A DNA stretch of 25,093 nt from a virus. Lineage: Duplodnaviria; Heunggongvirae; Uroviricota; Caudoviricetes. The notes beneath the pieces were generated by a model. It was not told the DNA's origin and did not search any database. It saw nothing but the letters and a program-made list of their open reading frames with translations. Below are positions 1-25,093 of this stretch, piece after piece. The translations under genes and the position numbers were made by a program. Where the stretch lies: the IMG/VR virus record IMGVR_UViG_2541047854_000006, one strand, 5' to 3'. The stretch's first letter is position 1, and each line of letters begins with the position of its first letter.

Positions 1-19
1 CTATTTGATAAATATTAAA

Positions 20-1300
20 TTAATTTTTCATTGCTTCGTTATGGGGCATGGTTGGGGCAAACTCGCTTAACTGTGTATTTAACAAAGCTACCTGTGCATT
101 ATTGTTTTCAGACATCCATTTTCCGTATACCTGAAATACCATTTGCGCATCTGCATGGCCCATCTGGTTTGCTATAAATGCCGGGTTAGCACCAGCTGTC
201 AGCGACCAGCAGGCATAAGTATGTCTCGACTGATATGATTTTCGATGGCGGAGTCCGGCACGTTTTATCGCTGCGTCCCACATCTGCCTTATTGAGTCAA
301 CGGTAAAATGGTCACCATAATTTTTTACTCTCGCTGACACTTCAGGTTGAAAAACAAAGGTGCATTTTTGTTTTTCTGTTCTGCCATACTCTCTGAGGTG
401 AACATCAATGATATGCTCTTTGCTCAGTCTCGTTAATGTCATCTGACTCCGGAGAGCGTCGATTGCTGGCTTAATAAGATGAATGACCCGATTGGTTCCC
501 GCCTGTGTTTTTGGTACCGTGAAACGGTCTTTTGCTAAATTTCTCCTGATCATCATTGTTCCATTTTTCAGATCTATGTCCTCCCATCCAAGTGCACACA
601 GCTCACCAGGGCGAACGCCAGTATAAACAGAAACACACCATAAATTTTTTGCTTGCTGATTTCTGCACGCATCGATAAGACGGATAAATTCTTCCCGCGA
701 AAGAGGATCCGGAATGGTTCTTGATTCCTTTAATGGCGAGATCCCCTTAAACGGATTATCTGCCAGGTAACCGTTATCAACACCAAACTGGAACACGGCG
801 TTAAGATTTGTCATGTAATTAATTACAGTTACAGCCGATCTCCCTGGTTGTGTAACAATATAGTTACTTTTGGGGATCTGGTATCCAGTCAGTAACTCTT
901 TACGAACCTCCAGTAATTTTTCTTTATTAATCGATGAGGCAAGATTTTTTTCACCGATTATGCTCAGGATATTTTTGATGACGGCACGGTATGTGTTGAG
1001 TGATGTTTTGGCGACTTCAGTTTCTTTCAGTGCCAGAAATTTTTCAGCCAGTTCTTTTATGGTTAAATCTTGTCGGGCCTCACCAAATTTTTCCAGATTG
1101 CGTGAGGAGGGAAACTGTTTTGCATAGTCGAAAACACCAGTTTTTATTGCGTAACAAACAGAGGAGCGTAGTTCACCTGCAACGCGCCTGTTTTTTGCTG
1201 TGTCAGGAACCCCCAGATTTTCCCTGACTCTTACGTCTTTATAAACAAACCAGATACGTAATTTCCCTCCATGGTTTTCCACGCCTGTCGGATATTTCAT
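20..1300 (-). CDS. Prophage tyrosine integrase (lambda/Rac IntR-like, N-terminal arm-binding domain)
   Basis: 431-aa ORF 20..1315; N-terminus KYPTGVENHGGKLRIWF resembles arm-binding N-domain of lambdoid integrases; C-terminal catalytic region has R...HxxR...Y residues (RHRKSYQSRHTYACW, VFQVYGKW). Start set at second Met (MKYPTG) because it has a GAGAGAAG RBS-like sequence upstream; first Met at 1315 lacks one. Confidence 0.85.
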   Translation of the reverse strand: MKYPTGVENHGGKLRIWFVYKDVRVRENLGVPDTAKNRRVAGELRSSVCYAIKTGVFDYAKQFPSSRNLEKFGEARQDLTIKELAEKFLALKETEVAKTSLNTYRAVIKNILSIIGEKNLASSINKEKLLEVRKELLTGYQIPKSNYIVTQPGRSAVTVINYMTNLNAVFQFGVDNGYLADNPFKGISPLKESRTIPDPLSREEFIRLIDACRNQQAKNLWCVSVYTGVRPGELCALGWEDIDLKNGTMMIRRNLAKDRFTVPKTQAGTNRVIHLIKPAIDALRSQMTLTRLSKEHIIDVHLREYGRTEKQKCTFVFQPEVSARVKNYGDHFTVDSIRQMWDAAIKRAGLRHRKSYQSRHTYACWSLTAGANPAFIANQMGHADAQMVFQVYGKWMSENNNAQVALLNTQLSEFAPTMPHNEAMKN

Positions 1301-1334
1301 TTCAACTTCTCTCATTAGTTAGTGTGGCTTTTAG

Positions 1335-1586
1335 TCAAGTAAGATGACGTCTTGGTCTCGCTGATGCCTGGCGCTCAATCCAGCGATCAATTTCTTCCAG
1401 GTTGTAAAAGCATGGACTGTTATCCCATGGCATACCGTCATGAGCGACATGCTTATATTCCCTTCCTTCCATAAACGATTTTTCCCGGGCCTTTTTTAAC
1501 GTACCTTTTTTTATTCCTTTCAGCGCAATTAACTGCTCTTCGGATACCCATTTGCCGGGAGAGACAATCATGATTACTTCGCTCAT
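1335..1586 (-). CDS. Putative excisionase-like small protein (Xis position, directly upstream of int)
   Basis: 83-aa ORF immediately upstream of and co-oriented with the integrase; size and position typical for a lambdoid excisionase. Function inferred from context only. Confidence 0.45.
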   Translation of the reverse strand: MSEVIMIVSPGKWVSEEQLIALKGIKKGTLKKAREKSFMEGREYKHVAHDGMPWDNSPCFYNLEEIDRWIERQASARPRRHLT

Positions 1587-1658
1587 CGATTTCTTTATCT
1601 CTTACATCAGACGAGCGCCGGTTGCAGAATACCAGTCACAACCGGCGACAGTTGAACA

Positions 1659-3788
1659 TTAAGAATCAGCCTGACTCGGGATCAGTTTTTGCCAGATAAC
1701 TGAAACGTATTTTGCCTGGTAACGGGCGTCATCAAGTGCATTATGGCGCTCACCTTCGAATGGAATAGCCGTTCTGGCATCGAAGTCTATGGCTTTCCCC
1801 AGCTCAACGATTGTGCGTACATCGCGATCGTTGTAGTAACGCCACGGGCAGGGGATCCCCTGCCGTTCGTATGAACGGCGCAAAATCGTGTTGTCGAAGT
1901 TGGCTCCATTTCCCCAAACCTGAACAAAAAATTCACCGGAGTTTTCGTCGATAAATTCTCGCAATTGTAACAGTGCATCATCTAACGGGATTTCATCGGT
2001 CATAATGGCAGATTGCGCTTCGCGTGATTGCTTAAGCCACCATTTAATGGTGTCCCGATCAATGACTCCGCCAGCAGTTTCCAGATCGATAGTCTTACTA
2101 AATTCCGGTCCCATATCTCCGGTTTGCGGATCGAAAAATATTGCACCTATTGAGATGATCGGGGCATCAGGATTTTTTCCCATGGTTTTAAGGTCGATCA
2201 TTAGATGGTCACACGTCCTGCTGGTGGATGTGATTTCGTGATGACCGTTCACCTTAATTGGGTGATCTGCCGTCTCGCCAGTTTCATTATCGCTATTGTG
2301 ATGCTGATTGCCGCCAGTGTTCTCCTTGTGTGGATGTTCAGCGCCTTCCATTTCCTCCGGATCATCTTCCTGAACTTCAACCTGATACTCTTCATCGAAT
2401 GTTTCTTGGTATGTTGCGTCGCCCATCACCGCGCCACAATCAGGGCAGTTGCCGCCGCCGGTCTGACCGCAGGCGGTGCAGACTTTTTCCACTTCCTGTT
2501 GCGCTACTGGTTCAGGCTGTTTCGTTTCTGGCTCGTTTTGTAACGCATTTGGACTGTTTTGTTCCGCTTTTTGGTAGTTCCGTTCCGATTCATGCTGGTT
2601 CTGGTTCACAGAATCGCGGGTCTGGAGCCCCTTAACCCATTTCGGATCATTCGGGTCACTAATCCCTTCAACAAATTCACCACGTGATGCAGCAAGCAAC
2701 TTATCGGCGTCAGGCTGGCTGATATTGGCTGCCTGCATAATTTTGTTTACTTCGCCAGCGGTAACTTTTATCGGCTCTGGTTGTTCTGAATCTTCAGCGG
2801 TATCTACATTTTGCGGTAAGCCCGTGTATGTGCCATTTTTTCGGGCAAAATATTCTTCTTTTGTGATTTCAGTGGCGCCAGCAGCCAGTGCCTTATCCAG
2901 ACCAGAGAGTTTGTTTGCGCGACCGTATTTTTCTCCGTCCTTATCTGCGAAGAGGAAATAGAACGGCCCCTCACGCTCTACAGATGGTTCAGCTTCCGGC
3001 GCGGTTTCATTTTTTGGGATATCAGATACCTCAGTTTCCACTGCATCAGTTTGTGTTTCTGATGACTGGAGAACATCAACAGTGCCCAGGTCTGTTTCTT
3101 CATTCTCAAACACGCCCTTTGTCGTCAGGTATTCGCAGATATATTTGTTCAGTGCTACGGGATCTTTGTGAATGTCGATCGGACGCTCACGGACAAGGCC
3201 AAAAATAGTTTGGCGGTCGTAGCGAAGGGCATCAGGCTGTTTGCGCATTGATGCCGAGATACGCTTCCAGTCTTCGCGGTCGTTGTCGATAACTTCTTTT
3301 TTTGCCCAGCGATGGATGCTGCCGTCAATGTTTCCGGCATCCACATCACTAGGCCAGAGAGCGTAGGCCAGTTCGTCATCCAGTGTTTTCCATGTCTGCT
3401 TGTATTCGCGATGAATGGCAGCAATGACCGGGCTGATTTTTCCTGTTGAATTTTCAGTGTACTGTTGATTGGCTCTGGCGCGGGCGAGATCAACAACAGA
3501 CGTGTATTTTCCGGTTTCCTTGCGTTCACCTTCGCGACGTTTTTTCCAGATGCGCATCTCTGCCTGAATTTCGGGCCATTTAGCACCAGGAATACATTTA
3601 TGCTTAACCCACCCAATGGCGTGCAACTTAAGCTCCGGATACATGGCGTTAACTTCTGGCATTTTCATCAACGCTTCAACGATATGTCCGTCGAATGTTG
3701 CCATGTCTTCCTGCAACAATTCCTGTGCGCTAATAACCATAGCGGAACTGTTTGCTGAGAACACCGTGCGGTGTGTTGATGCAAACAA
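1659..3788 (-). CDS. Exonuclease-like protein (709 aa): unknown N-terminal region, acidic low-complexity linker, C4 zinc ribbon, C-terminal DEDD-type 3'-5' exonuclease-like domain
   Basis: Long uninterrupted ORF; central acidic stretch (EEYQVEVQEDDPEEMEGAEH); CTACGQTGGGNCPDCG zinc-ribbon motif; C-terminal region with DLET (Exo I-like), and HNALDDARY (Exo III H-x4-D-like) motifs. Exact start uncertain (several Met near N-terminus). Confidence 0.7.
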   Translation of the reverse strand: MFASTHRTVFSANSSAMVISAQELLQEDMATFDGHIVEALMKMPEVNAMYPELKLHAIGWVKHKCIPGAKWPEIQAEMRIWKKRREGERKETGKYTSVVDLARARANQQYTENSTGKISPVIAAIHREYKQTWKTLDDELAYALWPSDVDAGNIDGSIHRWAKKEVIDNDREDWKRISASMRKQPDALRYDRQTIFGLVRERPIDIHKDPVALNKYICEYLTTKGVFENEETDLGTVDVLQSSETQTDAVETEVSDIPKNETAPEAEPSVEREGPFYFLFADKDGEKYGRANKLSGLDKALAAGATEITKEEYFARKNGTYTGLPQNVDTAEDSEQPEPIKVTAGEVNKIMQAANISQPDADKLLAASRGEFVEGISDPNDPKWVKGLQTRDSVNQNQHESERNYQKAEQNSPNALQNEPETKQPEPVAQQEVEKVCTACGQTGGGNCPDCGAVMGDATYQETFDEEYQVEVQEDDPEEMEGAEHPHKENTGGNQHHNSDNETGETADHPIKVNGHHEITSTSRTCDHLMIDLKTMGKNPDAPIISIGAIFFDPQTGDMGPEFSKTIDLETAGGVIDRDTIKWWLKQSREAQSAIMTDEIPLDDALLQLREFIDENSGEFFVQVWGNGANFDNTILRRSYERQGIPCPWRYYNDRDVRTIVELGKAIDFDARTAIPFEGERHNALDDARYQAKYVSVIWQKLIPSQADS

Positions 3789-3876
3789 GATTAGCCATGA
3801 CTAACATATCGGTCAAGTGATTTTGTATGCTATAGCTAACATAATTGATGTGGTAAAAGATAACTCATTGATGATG

Positions 3877-4284
3877 TTATCTTTTATTTGTCCGCTGACG
3901 GGCTTTTAGTAATTCTTCAAAGAGTTTATTGAAGTTTTTTACTCGAGCTCGCATTTCGGCGAGCTGGGTATCCTGTTCTGATTCTGGCAGTGCATTAAAC
4001 AGCTCAAGGAGCTCTAGTTCTTTGGGGGATAAGGTAACTGGCTTCTCAACAGGTGGTGTTGGTTGCTTGTCTTCATCGCCAAATAGAATCCATGTTGGTG
4101 AGCATTGCAATACTTTGCTGAGGGCAAAAAGGTTCTTCCCTGTAGGTTCACTATCACCCCGTTCCCATTGTGATACAGACACATGGGAGATTTTCAGGGC
4201 TTTAGCAAGAGACCTTTGGGTGTGTTTGAGGTTTTTCCGACGATACCTGATGCGTTCGCCGATAGTTAAATTTTTTGTTTCCAT
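3877..4284 (-). CDS. dicA: DicA, cI-like HTH repressor of the prophage immunity region
   Basis: 135-aa protein METKNLTIGERIRYRRKNLKHTQRSLAKALKISHVSVSQWERGDSEPTGKNLFALSKVL... matches my memory of E. coli DicA (XRE-family HTH); divergent from a Cro-like gene. Confidence 0.88.
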   Translation of the reverse strand: METKNLTIGERIRYRRKNLKHTQRSLAKALKISHVSVSQWERGDSEPTGKNLFALSKVLQCSPTWILFGDEDKQPTPPVEKPVTLSPKELELLELFNALPESEQDTQLAEMRARVKNFNKLFEELLKARQRTNKR

Positions 4285-4367
4285 AGTTAGCTAATGCTAA
4301 ATCGTATTGACTATGTTTTTGTTAACATCTATCTTGTTAGTTATGACTAACAATAAAGGTGTTTTAA
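4285..4367. promoter_or_regulatory. Divergent dicA/dicC promoter-operator region with two related palindromes
   Basis: Palindrome TTAGCTAATGCTAA at 4287..4300 and GTTAGTTATGACTAAC at 4336..4351 (shared TTAG-N-CTAA half-sites) lying between divergent start codons of repressor and Cro-like genes; AT-rich. Confidence 0.6.
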
Positions 4368-4598
4368 ATGCTTAAAACTGACGCTCTTTTGTATTTCGGT
4401 TCAAAAACAAAACTTGCACAAGCAGCAGGTATTCGTTTGGCTTCGCTTTATAGCTGGAAAGGGGATTTAGTTCCCGAAGGTCGCGCGATGCGTCTACAGG
4501 AGGCATCTGGCGGGGAGCTTCAGTATGATCCCAAAGTTTATGATGAATATCGTAAGACGAAGCGGGCGGGGCGGTTGAACAATGAAAATCACTCCTGA
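4368..4598 (+). CDS. dicC: DicC, Cro-like small DNA-binding regulator
   Basis: 76-aa protein MLKTDALLYFGSKTKLAQAAGIRLASLYSWKGDLVPEGRAM... matches remembered DicC; divergent from dicA as in cI/cro arrangement. Confidence 0.85.
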   Translation: MLKTDALLYFGSKTKLAQAAGIRLASLYSWKGDLVPEGRAMRLQEASGGELQYDPKVYDEYRKTKRAGRLNNENHS

Positions 4599-4921
4599 AC
4601 AGGCTCGTGAGGCTCTGGATGCCTGGATATGTCGACCAGGAATGACACAGGAGCAGTGGCGATGTATACAACTCCGGCTACGGGTTATTCCCCTCTGAAC
4701 AGGCGCGTAAGGACTGGCAAAACGCCCGCAAAAAACTCTCGAGGGCAAAGGTGAAGAAACCTGCTGTGGTTGATCCGGACCTTATCTGGTCATCACCTGA
4801 CGGAGAAATACGTCGCTACGACAGTCGCCTAAACATAATCTGTCGCGAGTGCCGGAAGAGCGAAGTTATGCAGCGCATACTGGCTTTCTATCAGGGTAAT
4901 TTTCAGGACGTGGCGCAGTGA
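4582..4921 (+). pseudogene. Early-right ORF apparently split by a +1 frameshift (or two short overlapping ORFs)
   Basis: Frame 1 ATG 4582 gives 38 codons ending at TGA 4696..4698; frame 2 is open from 4646 to TGA 4919..4921 (ends in GTGA overlap with next gene). Both frames contain a similar EQAR..DW motif. Alternative: second ORF starts at GTG 4751 with GAGGG RBS. Confidence 0.3.
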
Positions 4922-5364
4922 GTGCACCGGCAACCATTCTTGATATGTGCTGTGGCAGCCGCATGTTCTGGTTCGATAAGTCTGACGAACGGGCGATATT
5001 CAGCGATATCAGAAAAGAAGGATACACATTACGCAATGGGAGACGCTTGATTATCAGCCCTGACATTATCGCAGATTTTCGTGCATTATCATTTGCAGAC
5101 GCATCTTTTTCGATGGTTGTATTAGACCCTCCGCATCTTGAGAGTGTTGGTGATAACGCCTGGATGGGAAAGAAATATGGACGGCTGAATAAAGATGCCT
5201 GGCGTGATGATTCGCGACAGAGATTTAAAGAAGCCTTTCGGGTGTTGAGGCCGCACGGCGTTCTGATTTTTTAATGGAATGAAACGCAAATACCGGTAAG
5301 CCAGATTCTGGCACTGACAGACAGAAAACCTGTTATCTGTCAACGAACAGGGAAAAAACGATAA
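4918..5364 (+). pseudogene. Methyltransferase-like ORF (DPPH motif) interrupted by in-frame TAA
   Basis: ORF 4918..5274 (LDMCCGS and VVLDPPH motifs typical of SAM-dependent DNA methyltransferases) stops at TAA 5272..5274 but the same frame continues WNETQIPVSQ... to TAA 5362..5364; the sequence across the stop (GVLIF*WNET) resembles the conserved post-DPPY region of methyltransferases. Confidence 0.45.
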
Positions 5365-5696
5365 AACCCACTGGATTATTTTTATGAAAGAGGCATCCAG
5401 TGAGTAGATTCGTAAGGCTACAGATACGTATATCTGAATAATTAAATTCAGTTCTGTAAATAAAATTTAATCCTTAACCGGATGGATTTCTGCACCCTCA
5501 GAACATCAGGAGGCCGCCCGAAAGGGCGGTAGTGAAATGCGAAAGTTCAAAATTATTATTGAAACGGGAATAGCTGGTGGAGATTTTGAGGATGTATTCG
5601 AAGTGGACGATGACGCAACACCTGAGGAAATTCATGACGGAGCATAAGAAATTTTCTTTAACTACTGCAATTACTCATACCACGAAATAAAAGACG

Positions 5697-5888
5697 ATGA
5701 GGAAGAACAAAGTGGCTGATTTTTGTTCAGCTAAATATAACATCAGTTTTGAAGAGCGGGATGAACTATTAATGGACTATGGTGAGTTACGCGGTGGAAG
5801 TGCTGCTGATGTCGAATCCTAGCGTGATGACTATGAAGCGGGAAAAACTCCGGTCGAAGCATATTGTGATGAGTGGGGCGATGAATGA
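5697..5888 (+). pseudogene. Small ORF with in-frame TAG (41 codons, TAG at 5820..5822, 21 more codons)
   Basis: ATG 5697; same frame continues through the amber codon to TGA 5886..5888 which overlaps the next ATG (ATGA). Coding status uncertain. Confidence 0.3.
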
Positions 5889-6172
5889 GCGAGATTAATT
5901 ATCAGGAAGGGCATGAAACGGCGGGGCAAGCAAAACCAGTGGCATGGCGATATCGCTACGTGAAAAAAGGCGTTACGGACTTTCAGGGGAAGTAGTGGTC
6001 TGGTGACTGGAAATATGTACCGAAAAAAGAGGATTGTAACGACAGGCCGAACTATCAAATTCAGGCCTTATTCACTGCCTCACCAGTCCCAGTTACATCA
6101 GAAGAACTGGTTAAAGCTGTGCACTTTTATGAACAACTAAAACGCGAAAATCCACCAACATCCGGCAACTAG
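5885..6172 (+). pseudogene. Small ORF with in-frame TAG (36 codons, TAG at 5993..5995, 58 more codons)
   Basis: ATG 5885 MSEINYQEGHETAGQAKPVAWRYRYVKKGVTDFQGK, amber, then WSGDWKYVPKKEDCNDRPNYQIQALF...SGN with terminal TAG 6170..6172; non-repetitive protein-like composition on both sides of the stop. Confidence 0.3.
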
Positions 6173-6426
6173 ATTAATGGATTAACTATGTCGGTTAAAC
6201 GACCAGCCAACTGAAAAAGCGGAAACCTGATTACAGGTTGCCAGATAAGGCAATGAGCTACCTGGCGCGGAACGGACTGATAAGTATGGGGAATGTTTTA
6301 CGATGAACCTTTAGACTAAAGAGTTTGTAACGCTATGTAAGTGATTTTTTCTGGTTTAGATATTTATATGTCCGGCCAAATTGAGGTGTGTTTAAATGTA
6401 ATTGCACATTGATTGTAGGAGGAATA

Positions 6427-6606
6427 ATGAAAAACGCATTGCAGTTTTTGTTTGTTGCGTTCTGGTTGTTCGCATCATGTATGCCCATCATCTTCACAGC
6501 AAGGTATATGGAAAAAGTTGATGTTTTGATATTAATATTTGGATATATAAATGCCCTTTTTTTAGGGGTGTTCATGGCGGTCATGTGCATTGAATACTGG
6601 CGGTAA
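6427..6606 (+). CDS. Small hydrophobic membrane peptide (59 aa, two predicted TM segments)
   Basis: ATG 6427 preceded by TAGGAGGA RBS; MKNALQFLFVAFWLFASCMPIIFTARYMEKVDVLILIFGYINALFLGVFMAVMCIEYWR is dominated by two hydrophobic stretches. Confidence 0.45.
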   Translation: MKNALQFLFVAFWLFASCMPIIFTARYMEKVDVLILIFGYINALFLGVFMAVMCIEYWR

Positions 6607-6799
6607 ATACAGCGAACTCCATTGGTTTAGTTGGATATTTACTGTGCTGGACAAAAACGGTTTGCGGGGAAATCTTAGTTAAGTAGAATGACTGCGGGTG
6701 CTTGAGGCTATCTGCCTCGGGCATGGACACCAACGGCAGATAGAGAAAAGCCCCAGTTAACATTACGCGTCCTGCAAGACGCTTAACATTAATCTGAGG

Positions 6800-8500
6800 C
6801 CAATTTCATGCTAGACACATGTAGGTTAGCCTCTTACGTGCCGAAAGGCACGGAGAAGCAGGCTATTGTTAACACCAAGCTGTAATGTCCCCTTTGAACC
6901 ATTCTAAAATGTCCCCAGACAATTCTCTGGGGGATTTTTCATGATCAAAGAGACTGTTACGATGAGTCATAAGGAACTCCACCGACTTCAGATTATTCAG
7001 GAACAAGCTGCGGCACGCATTGGCATTTCTATTCGGCAGGTTAAACGTCTGGTGCAACGGTATAGAAATGAAGGGCCTTCTGGTCTGGTTTCCCACCGAC
7101 GTGGAAAGCGTCCTAATAATTCCTTTTCTACTGAATTCAGAGCAACAGTAATTTCACTCCTCAAAGGCCGTTACGCTGATTTTGGACCTACGTTTGCGTG
7201 CGAAAAATTGCGCGAGATACACGGTTTATCTTTATCCGTTGAAACTCTCAGAAAGTGGATGATAGAAGAGGGGTTATGGCGTGAACGCCGTCGTAAAATT
7301 GCCCGTATATATCAACGCCGCATGCGACGACCATCTTACGGTGAACTGATCCAGATTGATGGCTCACCTCATGACTGGTTTGAAAATCGAGGCCCCAGAT
7401 GTACACTGATCGTTTTCATTGATGATGCCACCAGTGCGTTGATGGCGTTGCGTTTTGTGCCTGCTGAAACAACCCGGGCTTACATGGAAACCCTCCGGGG
7501 TTACCTTAATGATCATGGCGTACCGCTCGCTCTCTACTCTGATAGACACAGTATATTCAGGGTAAATAACCCAGAGCGGGAAGGTGAGCTGACCCAGTTC
7601 ACTCGTGCGATAAAGACACTGGGCATCGAGCCAATCCATGCCAACAGCCCGCAGGCAAAAGGGCGGGTAGAGCGCGCCAATCAGACACTACAGGACAGGC
7701 TGGTCAAAGAAATGCGGCTTCAGAATATCAGTGATATTGAAACAGCAAATGCATGGTTGCCGACCTTTATTGAAGCCTATAACAACCGGTTCGCTACGTC
7801 GCCTCGTACTACTGATAATGCTCATCTTGATGTGCACCATTCTGAAGAGGAACTGGGTTATATCTTCAGCCTACAGGCGAAGCGCGTTCTGTCTAAAAAT
7901 CTCACTTTCCAGTACAAAAGCAGTGCGTTTCAGGTACGCAGTGAGGGCCGGGGATATCGACTTAGGCATTCGGTTGTTACTGTATGCGAGAACTTTGACG
8001 GTGAAATTAACGTTCTGTATGACGGGAAAGCGCTGGGCTGGGAAAAGTATGTTGATGGCCCGGAGCCTATACCACTGGATGATGAAAAGAGTGTCCATGA
8101 ACGAGTGGATAATGCCCGTATTGATTTACGCTCAAAATACTATGTTAAACCTAAAGCTGACCATCCCTGGCTTACGCGCCGAACGCAAAGTCATCAGCAA
8201 GTTAAGCCCCCGAAGTTACCTAAAAAGAAGCCTGATCCCGATAAAAAAGATTGAAACCAAGATCGATTCGGTTGAGTGCATATCCATTCATAGGGTAGAT
8301 TCTTAAGTCGCGTTTCTGGTGTTCATTTTCGGGTGGTTTGTTACTTGTTTTACCGGGGATATGCCAGAAACGCGCTGAGTCAGTCTGGGCGGTGCGCGTA
8401 ATGAGGCGTTATGGTAAATAGCCTATGCTAATGTCCGCTAAGAGCAAGAAGCGGAAGTTGGCAGTTTTGTGGACTGTCCCCACAAAAGTGACTACAGAAA
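6800..8500 (+). mobile_element. Insertion sequence-like element carrying a DDE transposase (boundaries approximate)
   Basis: Single transposase ORF interrupting prophage gene order between early-right remnants and flxA; terminal inverted repeats could not be defined by eye, so ends are estimates. Confidence 0.4.
6941..8254 (+). CDS. DDE transposase with N-terminal HTH and integrase-core (rve) domain, IS481/ISNCY-like
   Basis: 437-aa ORF; N-terminal HTH-like region (AAARIGISIRQVKRLVQRY); catalytic-core motifs LIQIDGSPHDW (D), LYSDRHSIF (D), GRVERANQTLQDRL (E); lysine/proline-rich C-terminal tail. Confidence 0.85.
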   Translation: MIKETVTMSHKELHRLQIIQEQAAARIGISIRQVKRLVQRYRNEGPSGLVSHRRGKRPNNSFSTEFRATVISLLKGRYADFGPTFACEKLREIHGLSLSVETLRKWMIEEGLWRERRRKIARIYQRRMRRPSYGELIQIDGSPHDWFENRGPRCTLIVFIDDATSALMALRFVPAETTRAYMETLRGYLNDHGVPLALYSDRHSIFRVNNPEREGELTQFTRAIKTLGIEPIHANSPQAKGRVERANQTLQDRLVKEMRLQNISDIETANAWLPTFIEAYNNRFATSPRTTDNAHLDVHHSEEELGYIFSLQAKRVLSKNLTFQYKSSAFQVRSEGRGYRLRHSVVTVCENFDGEINVLYDGKALGWEKYVDGPEPIPLDDEKSVHERVDNARIDLRSKYYVKPKADHPWLTRRTQSHQQVKPPKLPKKKPDPDKKD

Positions 8501-11387: not shown

Positions 11388-11687
11388 AAAAATTCCTTAA
11401 TACTGATAACTTGGCGCACTATACACACGTTCCTGAAGAAAGCTATAGTTTTTTGATGGGGTTGAAGATGGCTGGATGTCTAAAATAAACATTGCTTCAT
11501 ATGTTCAACTATGCGTTAATGATTGCGTCGGTTTGAAGAACAGACGATATACGAAGTAGTTTACTAAAGCAGTTCTCATTTCAGGTGTTATTCACTTATT
11601 CCTTCTTTGAGTCTCTCCAATTAAGTACGAAGTCGTTTCTGTTATGCAAACCATTTATGCCGAAAGGCTCAAGTTAAGGAATGTAGA

Positions 11688-11903
11688 ATGTCAAATAAAA
11701 TGACTGGTTTAGTAAAATGGTTTAACGCTGATAAAGGTTTCGGCTTTATTTCTCCTGTTGATGGTAGTAAAGATGTGTTTGTGCATTTTTCTGCGATTCA
11801 GAATGATAATTATCGAACCTTATTTGAAGGTCAAAAGGTTACCTTCTCTATAGAGAGTGGTGCTAAAGGTCCTGCAGCAGCAAATGTCATCATTACTGAT
11901 TAA
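11688..11903 (+). CDS. cspB: Cold-shock protein CspB
   Basis: 71-aa protein [71 protein letters not shown]; long AT-rich 5' leader typical of cold-shock genes. Confidence 0.9.
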
Positions 11904-12185
11904 AATTCATCGCTCGTCTGTATACGATAACGAAGAAGGCTGATGCCTGAGTAGAGATACGGACAGAGTAGTGAATATTGGATCTCTTTAATAAAAAGTA
12001 AGGAGGTCCAATACATGAAACAATGGCTAGCATATTTGGCAAAATCTTAATCAGGAAAAGTATGCTAACCATTGTGGTGAAGTGCAGGTTTGCTGCATGA
12101 ATAGTTTTACAGCAGAAGCTAACTGCTGGCATGGCAAAACAAAGTGCGTAAGTGGATGACTCCCACAAAAAGCACCACAATCTCA

Positions 12186-14212: not shown

Positions 14213-14574
14213 GGTAATATTAAATCGGAACATTTACATCGCGGAATGTAAAATTTAAATAAAAAGGACTCTTCCATGAGCCAAAATTCCTGAAATCTTA
14301 AGGGTAAGATAAAAGGTCTTAATCAGAATGACACGTTTTATTAATAAATAAAGCTATTCTTTCATTGCTGTGTTTTTCTTTACAAAAGTAATCCTTGCTA
14401 TGGGTGGTTAATCATGCGTTAATGGTGTTCTGGTTTGTTACAAATTTATCTGAAGCAGTCATTGTTATAATTTTATTATTTGTACCTCTTGAGATTTCCT
14501 TGTTGGTTTTTCTCTCTGATATTTTTTTTCGGACCATTCTGCCCAAGGGCTAATTTCTTCAAAAGGTAATAATT

Positions 14575-14787
14575 ATGTCTAACAAAATGACTGGTTTAGT
14601 GAAATGGTTTAACCCTGAAAAAGGTTTTGGTTTCATCACGCCGAAAGATGGCAGCAAAGATGTGTTTGTCCATTTCTCAGCAATTCAGAGCAACGATTTC
14701 AAAACATTAACTGAGAATCAGGAAGTTGAATTTGGTATTGAGAACGGACCTAAAGGTCCTGCCGCTGTTCATGTAGTGGCGCTTTGA
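14575..14787 (+). CDS. cspI: Cold-shock protein CspI
   Basis: 70-aa protein [70 protein letters not shown]; preceded by about 350 bp AT-rich leader. Confidence 0.9.
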
Positions 14788-14993
14788 GGTAGACAATATT
14801 ACAAACCATATTCACTTTAGATGCCCGTGTTGTCATGGTTCCCAGTATAGAACATCATCTTTTGATGTTTCTGACATGAATCCTTTCGGGGCAAAATGTA
14901 TCTTTTGTAAATCAATGATGATTACATTTGATAATATTTCACAATACTTAAATGCCAGCCGTCTGTCGTTGGATTTAAAAAAGTGAAAATGAA

Positions 14994-21210: not shown

Positions 21211-21785
21211 TGGCATTCAGAATGAGTGAACAACCACGGACCATAAAAATTTATAATCTGCTGGCCGGAACTAATGAATTTATTGGTGAAGGTGATGCAT
21301 ATATTCCGCCTCATACAGGTCTGCCAGCAAACAGTACCGATATTGCACCGCCAGATATTCCGGCTGGCTTCGTGGCTGTTTTCAACAGTGATGAGTCATC
21401 GTGGCATCTCGTTGAAGATCATCGGGGTAAAACGGTTTATGACGTGGCTTCCGGCGACGCGTTATTTATTTCTGAACTCGGTCCGTTACCGGAAAATGTT
21501 ACCTGGTTATCGCCGGAAGGGGAGTTTCAGAAGTGGAACGGCACAGCCTGGGTGAAGGATACGGAAGCAGAAAAACTGTTCCGGATCCGGGAGGCGGAAG
21601 AAACAAAAAACAACCTGATGCAGGTAGCCAGTGAGCATATTGCGCCGCTTCAGGATGCTGCAGATCTGGAAATTGCAACGGAGGAAGAAATCTCGTTGCT
21701 GGAAGCATGGAAAAAGTATCGGGTATTGCTGAACCGTGTTGATACGTCAACTGCACAGGATATTGAATGGCCAGCACTGCCGTAG
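21210..21785 (+). CDS. Tail fiber assembly protein (Tfa family)
   Basis: 191-aa ORF starting in TAATG overlap with the fibre gene; [51 protein letters not shown]... typical of lambda Tfa / P2 G chaperones. Confidence 0.85.
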
Positions 21786-23809: not shown

Positions 23810-25093
23810 ATGGATTTCCAGTTATATTCGCTCGGCGCAGCGTTAGTGTTTCATGAAATATTTTTTCCTGAATCATCAACGGCAATGGCGTTAATTTTGG
23901 CAATGGGAACCTACGGTGCAGGTTATGTGGCGCGTATTGTCGGAGCATTTATTTTCGGCAAAATGGGCGACAGAATAGGGCGTAAAAAAGTGCTCTTTAT
24001 TACCATCACCATGATGGGGATCTGTACCACCTTAATTGGTGTGTTACCGACCTATGCACAGATTGGTGTTTTTGCCCCCATCTTGCTGGTGACGCTGCGT
24101 ATTATTCAGGGGTTGGGTGCAGGTGCGGAAATTTCCGGTGCCGGTACGATGCTGGCGGAATATGCACCAAAAGGTAAGCGCGGAATTATCTCCTCATTTG
24201 TAGCTATGGGAACTAACTGCGGAACCTTGAGCGCAACGGCAATCTGGGCCTTTATGTTCTTCATTCTCAGTAAAGAGGAACTGCTGGCGTGGGGATGGCG
24301 TATACCGTTCCTGGCGAGCGTTGTCGTGATGGTCTTTGCTATCTGGTTACGTATGAATCTGAAAGAAAGCCCGGTCTTTGAGAAGGTTAATGACAGCAAC
24401 CAACCCACAGCAAAACCTGCACCTGCTGGTAGCATGTTCCAGAGCAAATCCTTCTGGCTGGCAACAGGGCTGCGTTTTGGTCAGGCGAGTAACTCCGGGT
24501 TAATTCAGACTTTCCTTGCAGGCTATTTAGTGCAGACGTTATTGTTTAACAAAGCAATTCCAACAGATGCATTGATGATTAGTTCGATTCTCGGCTTTAT
24601 GACCATTCCGTTCCTTGGTTGGTTATCCGATAAAATTGGTCGCCGGATCCCGTATATTATTATGAATACCTCCGCGATTGTGCTGGCATGGCCAATGCTT
24701 TCTATCATTGTAGATAAAAGCTATGCCCCGAGCACCATTATGGTTGCACTGATTGTGATTCATAACTGTGCGGTGCTGGGATTATTTGCTCTGGAAAACA
24801 TTACCATGGCAGAAATGTTCGGCTGTAAAAACCGCTTTACCCGGATGGCTATTTCTAAAGAAATTGGTGGTCTTATCGCTTCCGGTTTTGGTCCTATCCT
24901 GGCGGGTATTTTCTGCACCATGACGGAATCCTGGTATCCGATCGCCATTATGATCATGGCATATTCAGTGATTGGTTTAATCTCTGCGCTGAAAATGCCA
25001 GAGGTGAAAGACCGTGATTTAAGTGCGCTGGAAGACGCTGCGGAAGATCAACCGCGTGTTGTAAGAGCTGCGCAACCTTCCAGAAGTCTGTAA
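23810..25093 (+). CDS. ydfJ: MFS (metabolite:H+ symporter family) transporter, N-terminally truncated host gene
   Basis: 427-aa ORF MDFQLYSLGAALVFHEIFFPESS... begins inside the conserved (W)YDFxLYG region that normally follows a first TM helix; in-frame TGA at 23804..23806 directly upstream; Gly-rich MFS motifs (GKMGDRIGRKK). Confidence 0.85.
   Translation: MDFQLYSLGAALVFHEIFFPESSTAMALILAMGTYGAGYVARIVGAFIFGKMGDRIGRKKVLFITITMMGICTTLIGVLPTYAQIGVFAPILLVTLRIIQGLGAGAEISGAGTMLAEYAPKGKRGIISSFVAMGTNCGTLSATAIWAFMFFILSKEELLAWGWRIPFLASVVVMVFAIWLRMNLKESPVFEKVNDSNQPTAKPAPAGSMFQSKSFWLATGLRFGQASNSGLIQTFLAGYLVQTLLFNKAIPTDALMISSILGFMTIPFLGWLSDKIGRRIPYIIMNTSAIVLAWPMLSIIVDKSYAPSTIMVALIVIHNCAVLGLFALENITMAEMFGCKNRFTRMAISKEIGGLIASGFGPILAGIFCTMTESWYPIAIMIMAYSVIGLISALKMPEVKDRDLSALEDAAEDQPRVVRAAQPSRSL

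Follow-up and report, generated by a model that had tools for sequence, protein, structure and literature searches.

A probable exonuclease gene remnant beside dicA in a Qin-type cryptic prophage

Organization of the locus

The sequence analyzed here, which we call the window, is a stretch of 25,093 nt from the Caudoviricetes record IMGVR_UViG_2541047854_000006. Its left part carries genes for an integrase and an excisionase, a long open reading frame (ORF), the repressor gene dicA and the gene dicC, and the remaining window has the gene content of Qin as far as ydfJ. The features of the left part are listed below.

20..1315, minus strand: integrase, at the prophage end beside rspB (from the ORF and the annotation of collinear relatives)
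1335..1586, minus strand: excisionase, downstream of the remnant discussed below (from the ORF and the annotation of collinear relatives)
1659..3788, minus strand: mechanically delimited ORF, uninterrupted, 709 aa counted from a TTG codon
3788..3816, minus strand: putative dicBp, with -35 TTGACC (3816..3811), a 17-nt spacer and -10 TAATCT (3793..3788)
3788..3807 and 3823..3842, no strand assigned: two Oc-like palindromic sites, 14/20 matches, on both strands
3877..4284, minus strand: dicA (repressor), intact, 135 aa, 99.3% identity by tblastn (134/135 aa)
4334..4353, no strand assigned: Oc operator of DicA, matched exactly at 20/20 positions, between dicA and dicC
4368..4598, plus strand: dicC (Cro-like), 100% identity by tblastn
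4654..4656, no strand assigned: junction of a deletion (deletion 2), 1,591 bp lost, 'CAG' microhomology

An earlier note, made from the sequence alone, had described a single large gene with dicA directly upstream of it, and both are present at these positions. DicA of the window carries a private substitution, A84T, relative to K-12 and to the related locus L002.

The promoter dicBp lies upstream of ydfA and is repressed by DicA, and ydfE is counted in the dicBF operon that is transcribed from this promoter (PMC10448788). The putative dicBp of the window was read by eye, and the same sequence is found upstream of ydfA in an intact relative; a consensus promoter scanner did not call the TTGACC-17-TAATCT site. 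Operators were sought with the published Oc sequence, TTGTTAGTCATAACTAACAA (PMC3441716). The score of the two 14/20 sites is by itself not above chance, and it is only their placement that suggests that they may be operators.

The earlier note found neither dicB nor DicF in the window, and this has held up. Over its full length the window gave no match to the Rfam DicF model, whether at the gathering threshold or at E<=5; in the intact relative L003, which served as the positive control, the model scored 76.7 bits. A blastn-short search of the window with K-12 dicF was also blank. Likewise, tblastn returned no match in the window for DicB, YdfA, YdfB, YdfC, YdfD, KilR or RecT.

A 1,990-bp deletion within the dicB operon

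Intact relatives of the locus, located at the same rspB site, were found in E. coli CFSAN061762 and in phage PhiR42_1. The gene order in these relatives is dicA-ydfA-ydfB-ydfC-DicF-dicB-ydfD-exo-xis-int, where exo encodes an exonuclease-like protein of 823 aa. Window positions 1-3741 correspond to L003 positions 202-3942, and window positions 3740-4656 correspond to L003 positions 5931-6847. The left match thus reaches window position 3741 (L003 3942) and the right match begins at window position 3740 (L003 5931). The L003 interval of 1,990 bp that is missing from the window contains the whole of ydfA, ydfB, ydfC, DicF, dicB and ydfD. One breakpoint lies 30 nt ahead of the ydfA ATG and the other at exonuclease codon 130/131, and the ORF is divided as follows.

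1659..3740, minus strand: 3' part of the exonuclease gene, residues 131-823 (693 codons plus stop), collinear with L003 1860..3941 at 99.9% identity
3740..3741, no strand assigned: junction of deletion 1, 1,990 bp lost, 2-nt 'TA' microhomology
3741..3788, minus strand: 16 spurious N-terminal codons including the TTG, collinear with L003 5932..5979, between dicA and ydfA

Read from this alignment, which shows it directly, a 1,990-bp deletion fused the dicB-operon leader to exonuclease codon 131. The intact 823-aa protein, used as a tblastn query, matches the window over aa 131-823, and positions 130-822 of the 823 in the PHROG 2082 profile correspond to ORF aa 16-708. Comparison with L003 assigns 3741..3788 to the leader and -10 region of the dicB operon rather than to the exonuclease gene, and the TTG "start" at 3788 overlaps the putative -10 hexamer by the final base of the latter. 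By this comparison the exonuclease gene accounts for no more than 693 of the 709 codons, and the other 16 are read-through of the dicB-operon leader. The remnant is without the native start codon and ribosome-binding site. In-frame ATG codons occur at M131, exactly at the junction, and at M143, which is preceded by AGGAAG. The stretch that forms the remnant is called a pseudogene ('incomplete; missing N-terminus') by PGAP in L002, L006 and L007.

Among 5,426 complete E. coli genomes, a 200-nt query spanning the junction was found unbroken in just 3, against hundreds of full-length copies of the gene. The three carriers come from Sweden, Russia and South Korea and were sequenced independently as complete genomes, and PGAP calls the gene a pseudogene in each; in one of them, FORC_082, dicA is frameshifted. 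Residues 131-823 of the window copy equal those of the intact protein WP_000048342.1 except for D459G and E648K. Over 4,656 nt the window differs from strain O15_8X at two positions, both non-synonymous (E648K in the exonuclease and A84T in DicA), and 1-2 substitutions in 2,082 nt separate the remnant of the window from those of the other junction carriers. Judged from this divergence the deletion is recent, so the open frame of 693 codons is uninformative on selection either way. Deletion 2 removed most of ydaT, the replication gene O and the 5' part of a DUF977 gene, and its junction is absent from all complete E. coli genomes of the collection.

The exonuclease domain

Two features of the nuclease part of the ORF were delimited.

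1692..2207, minus strand: DEDDh (DnaQ-like, Rv2179c-like/DexA-like) 3'-5' exonuclease domain, Pfam PF16473, ORF aa 528-699
2187..2189, minus strand: codon AAA (Lys) at the Exo I Glu position, D-L-K-T versus D-L-E-T, aligned to DexA E9

The C-terminal DEDD-like exonuclease fold that had been proposed from the sequence is borne out by the profile and structure searches. The C-terminus matches PF16473 ('Rv2179c-like 3'-5' exoribonuclease') over profile positions 2-177 of 177 (E=8e-66, 221.5 bits against a cutoff of 27), and the best match in a sequence search of the PDB was T4 DexA (8KEL, E=1.9e-7). The AlphaFold2 (AF2) model used is of an intact family representative, P0241, not of the Lys variant of the window, and its C-terminal domain has a pLDDT of mostly ~80-95. 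The top Foldseek matches of this model were T4 DexA, RNase T, oligoribonuclease (Orn) and REXO2, with probability 1.00 and target TM scores of 0.6-0.74; when the whole intact model was used, matches were confined to the C-terminal domain.

The catalytic set stands in part. Exo II and Exo III are kept (the Asp of NGANFD and the H-x4-D of HNALDD), at columns where the family has D in 120/122 sequences (Exo II) and H and D each in 114/114 covering sequences (Exo III). In Exo I the Asp is kept and the D-x-E pattern is not, as the window reads I-D-L-K-T where DexA has D7 and E9. The change comes from nucleotide 2189, which is T in the window and C in L001, L002, L003, L006 and L007. Glu occupies this column in 96 of 106 covering family sequences and Lys in 3; it is also Glu in 80/80 IMG/VR loci, a scan that returned only near-identical E. 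coli prophage copies and hence gives no measure of diversity. In DEDD enzymes this Glu coordinates metal, and with Lys at this catalytic position in the window copy the chemistry of the DEDD family predicts that exonuclease activity has been lost.

The same Lys (DLKT) occurs in the full-length genes of 26 other genomes and in one stand-alone protein of Klebsiella. A prophage lineage of O103:H2 carries the Lys allele with different flanking SNPs. Gene conversion from this type of allele was considered as a source of the change from Glu to Lys, and the flanking differences at 2157 and 2235 would bound any such tract to <78 bp. In the PADLOC defense models the window copy had no match and the intact protein had only a weak generic DEDDh match.

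The RecE-like scaffold

Upstream of the exonuclease domain in the reading direction, two further features were recognized.

2262..3395, minus strand: RecE-like non-nuclease region, matching RecE residues ~271-600
2436..2480, minus strand: CxxC-x7-CxxC (C4) motif, putative zinc ribbon, ORF aa 437-451

The earlier note had left the N-terminal half unassigned. Indeed no Pfam family matches it; it is, however, homologous to the central region of RecE. The NCBIfam model NF007259 (RecE) matches over its positions 271-600 with E=1e-83 and 281.9 bits, which is far below the equivalog cutoff of 1269. BLASTP aligned residues 278-592 of K-12 RecE at 39% identity (E=2e-61), and tblastn with RecE matched window positions 2250..3347 and gave nothing in the window for RecE beyond residue 592. 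PF06630, the PD-(D/E)XK nuclease domain of RecE, was not matched, and in L001, L003 and L008 the intact gene has no recT annotated next to it.

The C4 motif and the acidic tracts that the earlier note pointed out are present, the latter at approximately aa 226-270 (net -9) and 451-495 (net -11) of the ORF. The motif aligns to RecE residues 519-533 (CNACGQTGGDNCPDC), within the stretch of greatest likeness between the two proteins. Its AF2 confidence is only ~60, and the zinc-ribbon fold is putative.

The intact 823-aa protein is modular, with an N-terminal alpha/beta domain, helical domains, a small beta domain, acidic disordered linkers, the C4 motif and the DEDDh domain. It has the helical domains and the small beta domain in common with the large exonucleases of the RecE family and the C4 motif in common with RecE, and its C-terminus is a DEDDh two-metal 3'-5' exonuclease domain of the Rv2179c/T4 DexA family. 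Among 58 long homologues of the scaffold, PF06630 is present in 23, DUF3799 in 11 and PF16473 in ~7. Even with residues 1-130 left out, AF2 modeled the retained region aa 131-490 with high confidence, and the deletion breakpoint lies near the border between a variable N-terminal module and a widely conserved module of residues 131-340.

As a side observation, the intact gene unites the uncharacterized scaffold of RecE with a DexA-like 3'-5' exonuclease. No functional study of ydfE, of the intact gene or of a PF16473 prophage exonuclease was found in the literature searched.

Likeness to known systems

In lambdoid prophages of Qin type beside rspB, the intact gene is normally the last one of the dicB (PL-like) operon, which DicA represses. 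The closest described counterpart of the window is the Qin dicBF operon of K-12 (ydfA-ydfB-ydfC-dicF-dicB-ydfD-ydfE), which shares the rspB-side site, has identical or nearly identical dicA, dicC and Oc, and has the same gene content across the window (relBE, hokD, cspB/F/I, essD-rrrQ-rzpQ, nohA, tfaQ, pinQ and ydfJ). Its ydfE is the same gene as the one studied here: it follows ydfD, corresponds with 100% identity to residues 1-256 of the intact product, is cut by IS2E, and overlaps the window remnant at aa 131-256. The two prophages differ in what they have kept. K-12 Qin retains ydfA-ydfD, DicF, dicB and the first 256 exonuclease codons and has lost xis and part of int, whereas the window has lost ydfA-ydfD, DicF, dicB and codons 1-130 and retains codons 131-823, xis and int. 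WP_000048342.1 (823 aa; PHROG 2082; PhiR42_1 and CFSAN061762) is flanked by xis and int as in the window; the window copy differs from it in having no residues 1-130, no start of its own and Lys in place of the Exo I Glu.

RecE of the Rac prophage (exodeoxyribonuclease VIII) is alike in its central region, most closely over the C-terminal part of this region with CxxC...CxxC and an acidic tail, and in its place near xis/int at the end of an early-left operon. Its N-terminal scaffold is of unknown function (PMC11611040). In contrast to the DEDDh 3'-5' domain found here, RecE ends in a PD-(D/E)XK 5'-3' nuclease, and here no recT partner lies next to the gene.

T4 DexA (8KEL) and its bacterial homologue EcD, of the modification-dependent 'HREX' defense (PMC12153337), share the Pfam family and the DEDDh fold. 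Both are small stand-alone proteins, whereas the domain is fused here to a scaffold of 640 aa. DexA W152, which along with D169 is said to recognize 5hmC, aligns to a Tyr, and the window copy is without the Exo I Glu. The possibility that EcD is this very domain was considered and rejected: the EcD cloning primer encodes MIDTET, and no retrieved homologue begins in this way. On this basis EcD was treated as a different, stand-alone member of the family. Rv2179c of M. tuberculosis, the founder of PF16473, is related through the Pfam profile only and had no PDB sequence match at E<=10.

Origin and status of the remnant

The feature is very probably a 5'-truncated remnant of a prophage gene that arose by deletion and has no function. 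A deletion by illegitimate recombination at the 2-nt microhomology removed ydfA-ydfD, DicF, dicB and the first 130 exonuclease codons and left the remnant joined to the dicB-operon promoter and leader, as the sequence comparison shows. Any transcription would then start at dicBp once repression by DicA is lifted. Loss of the toxic dicB, DicF and ydfD would, going by the literature, be a plausible selective reason for such a deletion. Because the gene is truncated by a deletion and its catalytic residue is changed, the locus resembles a prophage in ordinary decay and not a new system, and the window a decayed, already annotated cryptic prophage of Qin type. Deletion 2, the frequent partial or internally deleted variants of the gene and the non-synonymous nature of both differences from O15_8X are further signs of decay. 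The question of the role of the gene in this element, raised in the earlier note, is probably beside the point, given the 5' truncation and the Lys in place of the catalytic Glu.

Among the alternatives, the one that survives best is that dicBp, once repression by DicA is lifted, still drives expression of the truncated gene as a protein of 681-693 aa that begins at M131 or M143 and has kept some function, which could be binding of nucleic acids or partners through the RecE-like scaffold, or a residual or altered nuclease activity. The open frame, the in-frame ATGs, the AGGAAG before M143 and the retained promoter-like and operator-like sequences are consistent with expression; the confident models of the retained domains alone and the breakpoint near a module boundary suggest that the product might fold; and the DLKT variant persists in the other genomes and the Klebsiella protein named above. 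We nevertheless regard such a product as unlikely. The native start and ribosome-binding site are gone, Lys replaces a Glu that the large majority of family representatives and all of the viral loci have, the allele is rare and recent and so shows no sign of selection, and the neighborhood is decaying, as deletion 2 and the dicA frameshift in FORC_082 indicate.

A broader proposal, which we hold to be quite improbable as a whole, is that the RecE-type scaffold is a functional module of its own, to which lambdoid prophages join nucleases that run in opposite directions (PD-(D/E)XK 5'-3' or DEDDh 3'-5'), and that disabled versions, such as the Exo I Lys allele and the N-terminally trimmed form, act independently of the nuclease when dicBp fires, for example by binding DNA ends or host factors.

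The earlier note had seen a single large gene where K-12 Qin has ydfABC-dicF-dicB. A swap of this kind, in which an intact gene of unknown role is alternative cargo exchanged for the dicB operon, would agree with its place beside dicA and with the missing dicB and DicF. It has next to no probability, since the window is collinear with L003 and L001 and the swap is thereby refuted. In relatives at 99.9% identity the dicB operon is followed by the full-length 823-aa gene, which lies downstream of ydfD; the junction is what a simple deletion would leave, and this deletion explains the layout of the window; the first 16 codons are dicB-operon leader; and the gene is found in K-12 Qin too, as the pseudogene ydfE. 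An assembly or sequencing artefact such as a collapsed contig is just as implausible, as the identical junction is present in the three independently sequenced complete genomes.

The locus illustrates the decay of cryptic prophages and has little weight as a discovery. It also gives reason for caution, as a remnant fused by deletion can pass for a new gene, and this exonuclease gene is frequently met as partial or internally deleted variants. About two-thirds of complete E. coli genomes have the intact 823-aa gene, which is ydfE of K-12 in its full length.

Open reading frame and flanking genes

Prior inspection of the window described a large exonuclease-like gene directly downstream of dicA, and the open reading frame is real. 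The relevant features are listed below.

1659..3788, minus strand: open reading frame of 709 aa counted from a TTG codon (ORF call)
1659..3740, minus strand: genuine exonuclease part, 693 codons (collinearity with the intact gene)
Upstream of 3740, to 3788, minus strand: 16 leader read-through codons including the TTG, not exonuclease sequence
3877..4284, minus strand: dicA, adjoining the reading frame (ORF call and tblastn)
4368..4598, plus strand: dicC, the other flanking ORF (ORF call and tblastn)

A Pfam profile search matched the C-terminal 170 aa to PF16473 (E=8e-66), in agreement with the DEDD-like exonuclease proposed there. PF16473 is the Rv2179c-like 3'-5' exoribonuclease family, which is DEDDh/DnaQ-like. 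The C4 motif and acidic linker are likewise present, as CxxC-x7-CxxC at residues 437-451 and two strong acidic tracts at about 226-270 and 451-495. The N-terminal half, thought to be unassigned, indeed has no match in the Pfam set searched, but BLASTP showed that it belongs to a scaffold shared with the central region of RecE. Precomputed annotation places two newer accessions from outside that set, PF27430 and PF27432, on this scaffold. The reported absence of dicB and DicF also held: tblastn with DicB, YdfA, YdfB, YdfC and YdfD found no match in the window, and the Rfam DicF model, which scores 76.7 bits in an intact relative, found none at its gathering threshold or at E<=5.

Origin of the truncated gene

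The earlier note placed the large gene in the position of the dicB operon, a reading that intact relatives contradict. Residues 16-708 align to positions 130-822 of the 823-position profile PHROG 2082 ('exonuclease'), and this late start suggested that the N-terminus had been lost. Among complete E. coli genomes and phages, Megablast recovered relatives of 99.9% identity whose matching segments extend over about 2-3.6 kb more DNA than in the window. E. coli CFSAN061762 and phage PhiR42_1, both with elements at the rspB site, share the gene order int, xis, an 823-aa '3'-5' exonuclease', ydfD, dicB, DicF, ydfC, ydfB, ydfA, dicA, dicC, ydaT, O, DUF977 and methyltransferase. Pairwise blastn equates positions 202-3942 of the CFSAN061762 element with window 1-3741 and positions 5931-6847 with window 3740-4656, a clean deletion of 1,990 bp with a 2-nt 'TA' overlap. 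One breakpoint lies in the leader after dicA and precedes the ydfA ATG by 30 nt, and the other is between exonuclease codons 130 and 131; hence 693 codons are genuine and the 16 upstream of them are leader read-through. A promoter-like element (TTGACC-17 nt-TAATCT) shares its final base with the TTG at 3788, and any transcript from this element would begin downstream of the TTG.

In K-12 the ydfE pseudogene directly follows ydfD, is cut by IS2E, and matches the intact protein over residues 1-256 with 100% identity. From this identity and its position after ydfD, the large gene can be recognized as the ydfE orthologue, which normally follows the dicB operon and does not replace it. The dicBF operon runs from ydfA to ydfE and is transcribed from the DicA-repressed promoter dicBp upstream of ydfA (PMC10448788). 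The deletion took with it DicB, DicF and the lysis protein YdfD, all three of them toxic. As cells that spontaneously induce dicBp are probably lost where dicBF is present (PMC10448788), getting rid of these functions would be a plausible selective reason for it.

When 5,426 complete E. coli genomes were searched with a junction-spanning probe of 200 nt, it matched without interruption in only three (B-JRPT-4119, O15_8X and FORC_082), and PGAP annotates the gene in all three as a pseudogene, 'incomplete; missing N-terminus'. The window gene is thus a pseudogene that was already annotated, and the Qin-type cryptic prophage around it is decaying.

The intact protein family

Residues 262-627 of the intact protein align to K-12 RecE 278-592 with 39% identity overall and far higher identity in the C-terminal part, including the C4 motif and acidic tail. 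The function of the RecE N-terminal region is unknown (PMC11611040). RecE itself was ruled out for the window protein, which shares the central scaffold but lacks both a PD-(D/E)XK domain and a recT partner; the NCBIfam RecE equivalog matches only at positions 271-600, far under its cutoff. T4 DexA and the EcD 'HREX' defence exonuclease (PMC12153337) have the same C-terminal domain family in different architectures, and no PADLOC model matched the window copy.

An exhaustive HMMER search for homologues of the first 568 residues of the intact protein returned only 229 cluster representatives among 1.84 billion. The C-terminal nuclease of the 58 long representatives is PF06630 in 23, DUF3799 in 11 and PF16473 in about 7. 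PF06630 is the RecE type nuclease and DUF3799 is PD-(D/E)XK-like. These alternatives on one scaffold indicate a modular family with exchangeable nucleases, of which the intact gene is the DEDDh version. The scaffold family is a small mosaic one (relatives P0241-P0389, alignment A2), whose alternative N-terminal modules are of the exonuclease type (aa 1-130) or the RecE type (1-277). Several natural variants of the exonuclease gene with in-frame internal deletions also occur (family proteins P0122, P0197, P0058 and P0042; 527, 392, 261 and 214 aa), that of P0058 beginning three residues from the window breakpoint (...DMVI), and the gene seems prone to deletions. Our literature search turned up no work on the function of ydfE or of the full-length gene, and the remaining interest lies only in the biology of this intact scaffold-plus-DEDDh family, so far uncharacterised.

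Changes in the window copy

Over its 693 retained residues, the copy differs from the intact protein by D459G and E648K. The second change replaces the Glu of the Exo I motif D-x-E, which aligns to DexA D7/E9; the window domain is PF16473/DEDDh by profile and fold, but its Exo I motif is incomplete. At nucleotide 2189 the window has T, where PhiR42_1, CFSAN061762 and all three deletion carriers have C. When DexA is aligned with 120 cluster representatives of the family, the column of this Glu has Glu in 96 of 106 covering sequences and Lys in 3; the remaining four catalytic residues (D, D, H, D) are conserved, and the window copy retains them. The Glu is found in all 80 IMG/VR loci, of which 52 encode the full 823 aa. 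The D-L-K-T variant (window 2187-2189) also occurs in full-length exonuclease genes of 26 other genomes, such as the 805-aa gene of E. coli O103:H2 12009 (4500..6917); P0007 and P0115 are listed with it, and one carrier is a 185-aa stand-alone homologue from Klebsiella oxytoca. Because the flanking SNPs in O103:H2 12009 differ from those of the window, E648K would reflect either recurrent mutation or a conversion tract of less than 78 bp.

Having lost its native start, ribosome-binding site, N-terminal 130 residues and one metal-ligand residue, the window gene is most likely an inactive remnant. That it is still expressed from dicBp as a shortened, partly functional protein seems to us improbable. 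The frame is open, although the deletion is too recent for this to be informative; an ATG (M131) lies exactly at the junction, AGGAAG precedes M143, and the promoter-like element is kept together with two Oc-like palindromes (14/20 matches each, not significant alone). The breakpoint is also close to where a variable N-terminal module gives way to a widely conserved 131-340 module, AF2 models the retained region confidently despite the N-terminal loss, and D-L-K-T persists in full-length genes elsewhere, but none of these points shows function.

Remainder of the prophage

Compared with O15_8X, the window shows just two differences in 4,656 positions, both non-synonymous: E648K and DicA A84T. 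The latter (window 4035, dicA codon 84) also differs from K-12, and dicA is frameshifted in FORC_082; both fit a repressor under relaxed constraint after the loss of dicB and DicF.

The window also carries a second deletion (1,591 bp; 'CAG' microhomology at 4654-4656), which affects 4582-4921. Gone are ydaT beyond codon 25, replication gene O and codons 1-51 of the DUF977 gene, of which a 56-aa ORF remains at 4751..4921. The junction is found in 0 of the 5,426 complete E. coli genomes, the three with the first deletion among them. Window 4700-25093 is 99.9-100% identical to those three and has Qin content (relBE, hokD, cspB/F/I, essD-rrrQ-rzpQ, nohA, tfaQ, pinQ), ending in ydfJ.

An Rfam 'sok' (CssrC) match at 6696-6867 adjoins a 437-aa ORF (6941..8254) annotated in near-identical strains as a partial ISNCY-family transposase pseudogene, and this looks like an insertion into the prophage early-right region. 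Two cspA-type thermoregulator 5' UTRs (11527-11919 and 14429-14814, upstream of cspB and cspI) and an IS009 sRNA (21553-21751) are typical Qin cargo. At the far boundary, ydfJ (23810-25093) is N-terminally truncated according to the annotation of an identical relative; the K-12 gene, which is split by Qin integration, is truncated in the same way.
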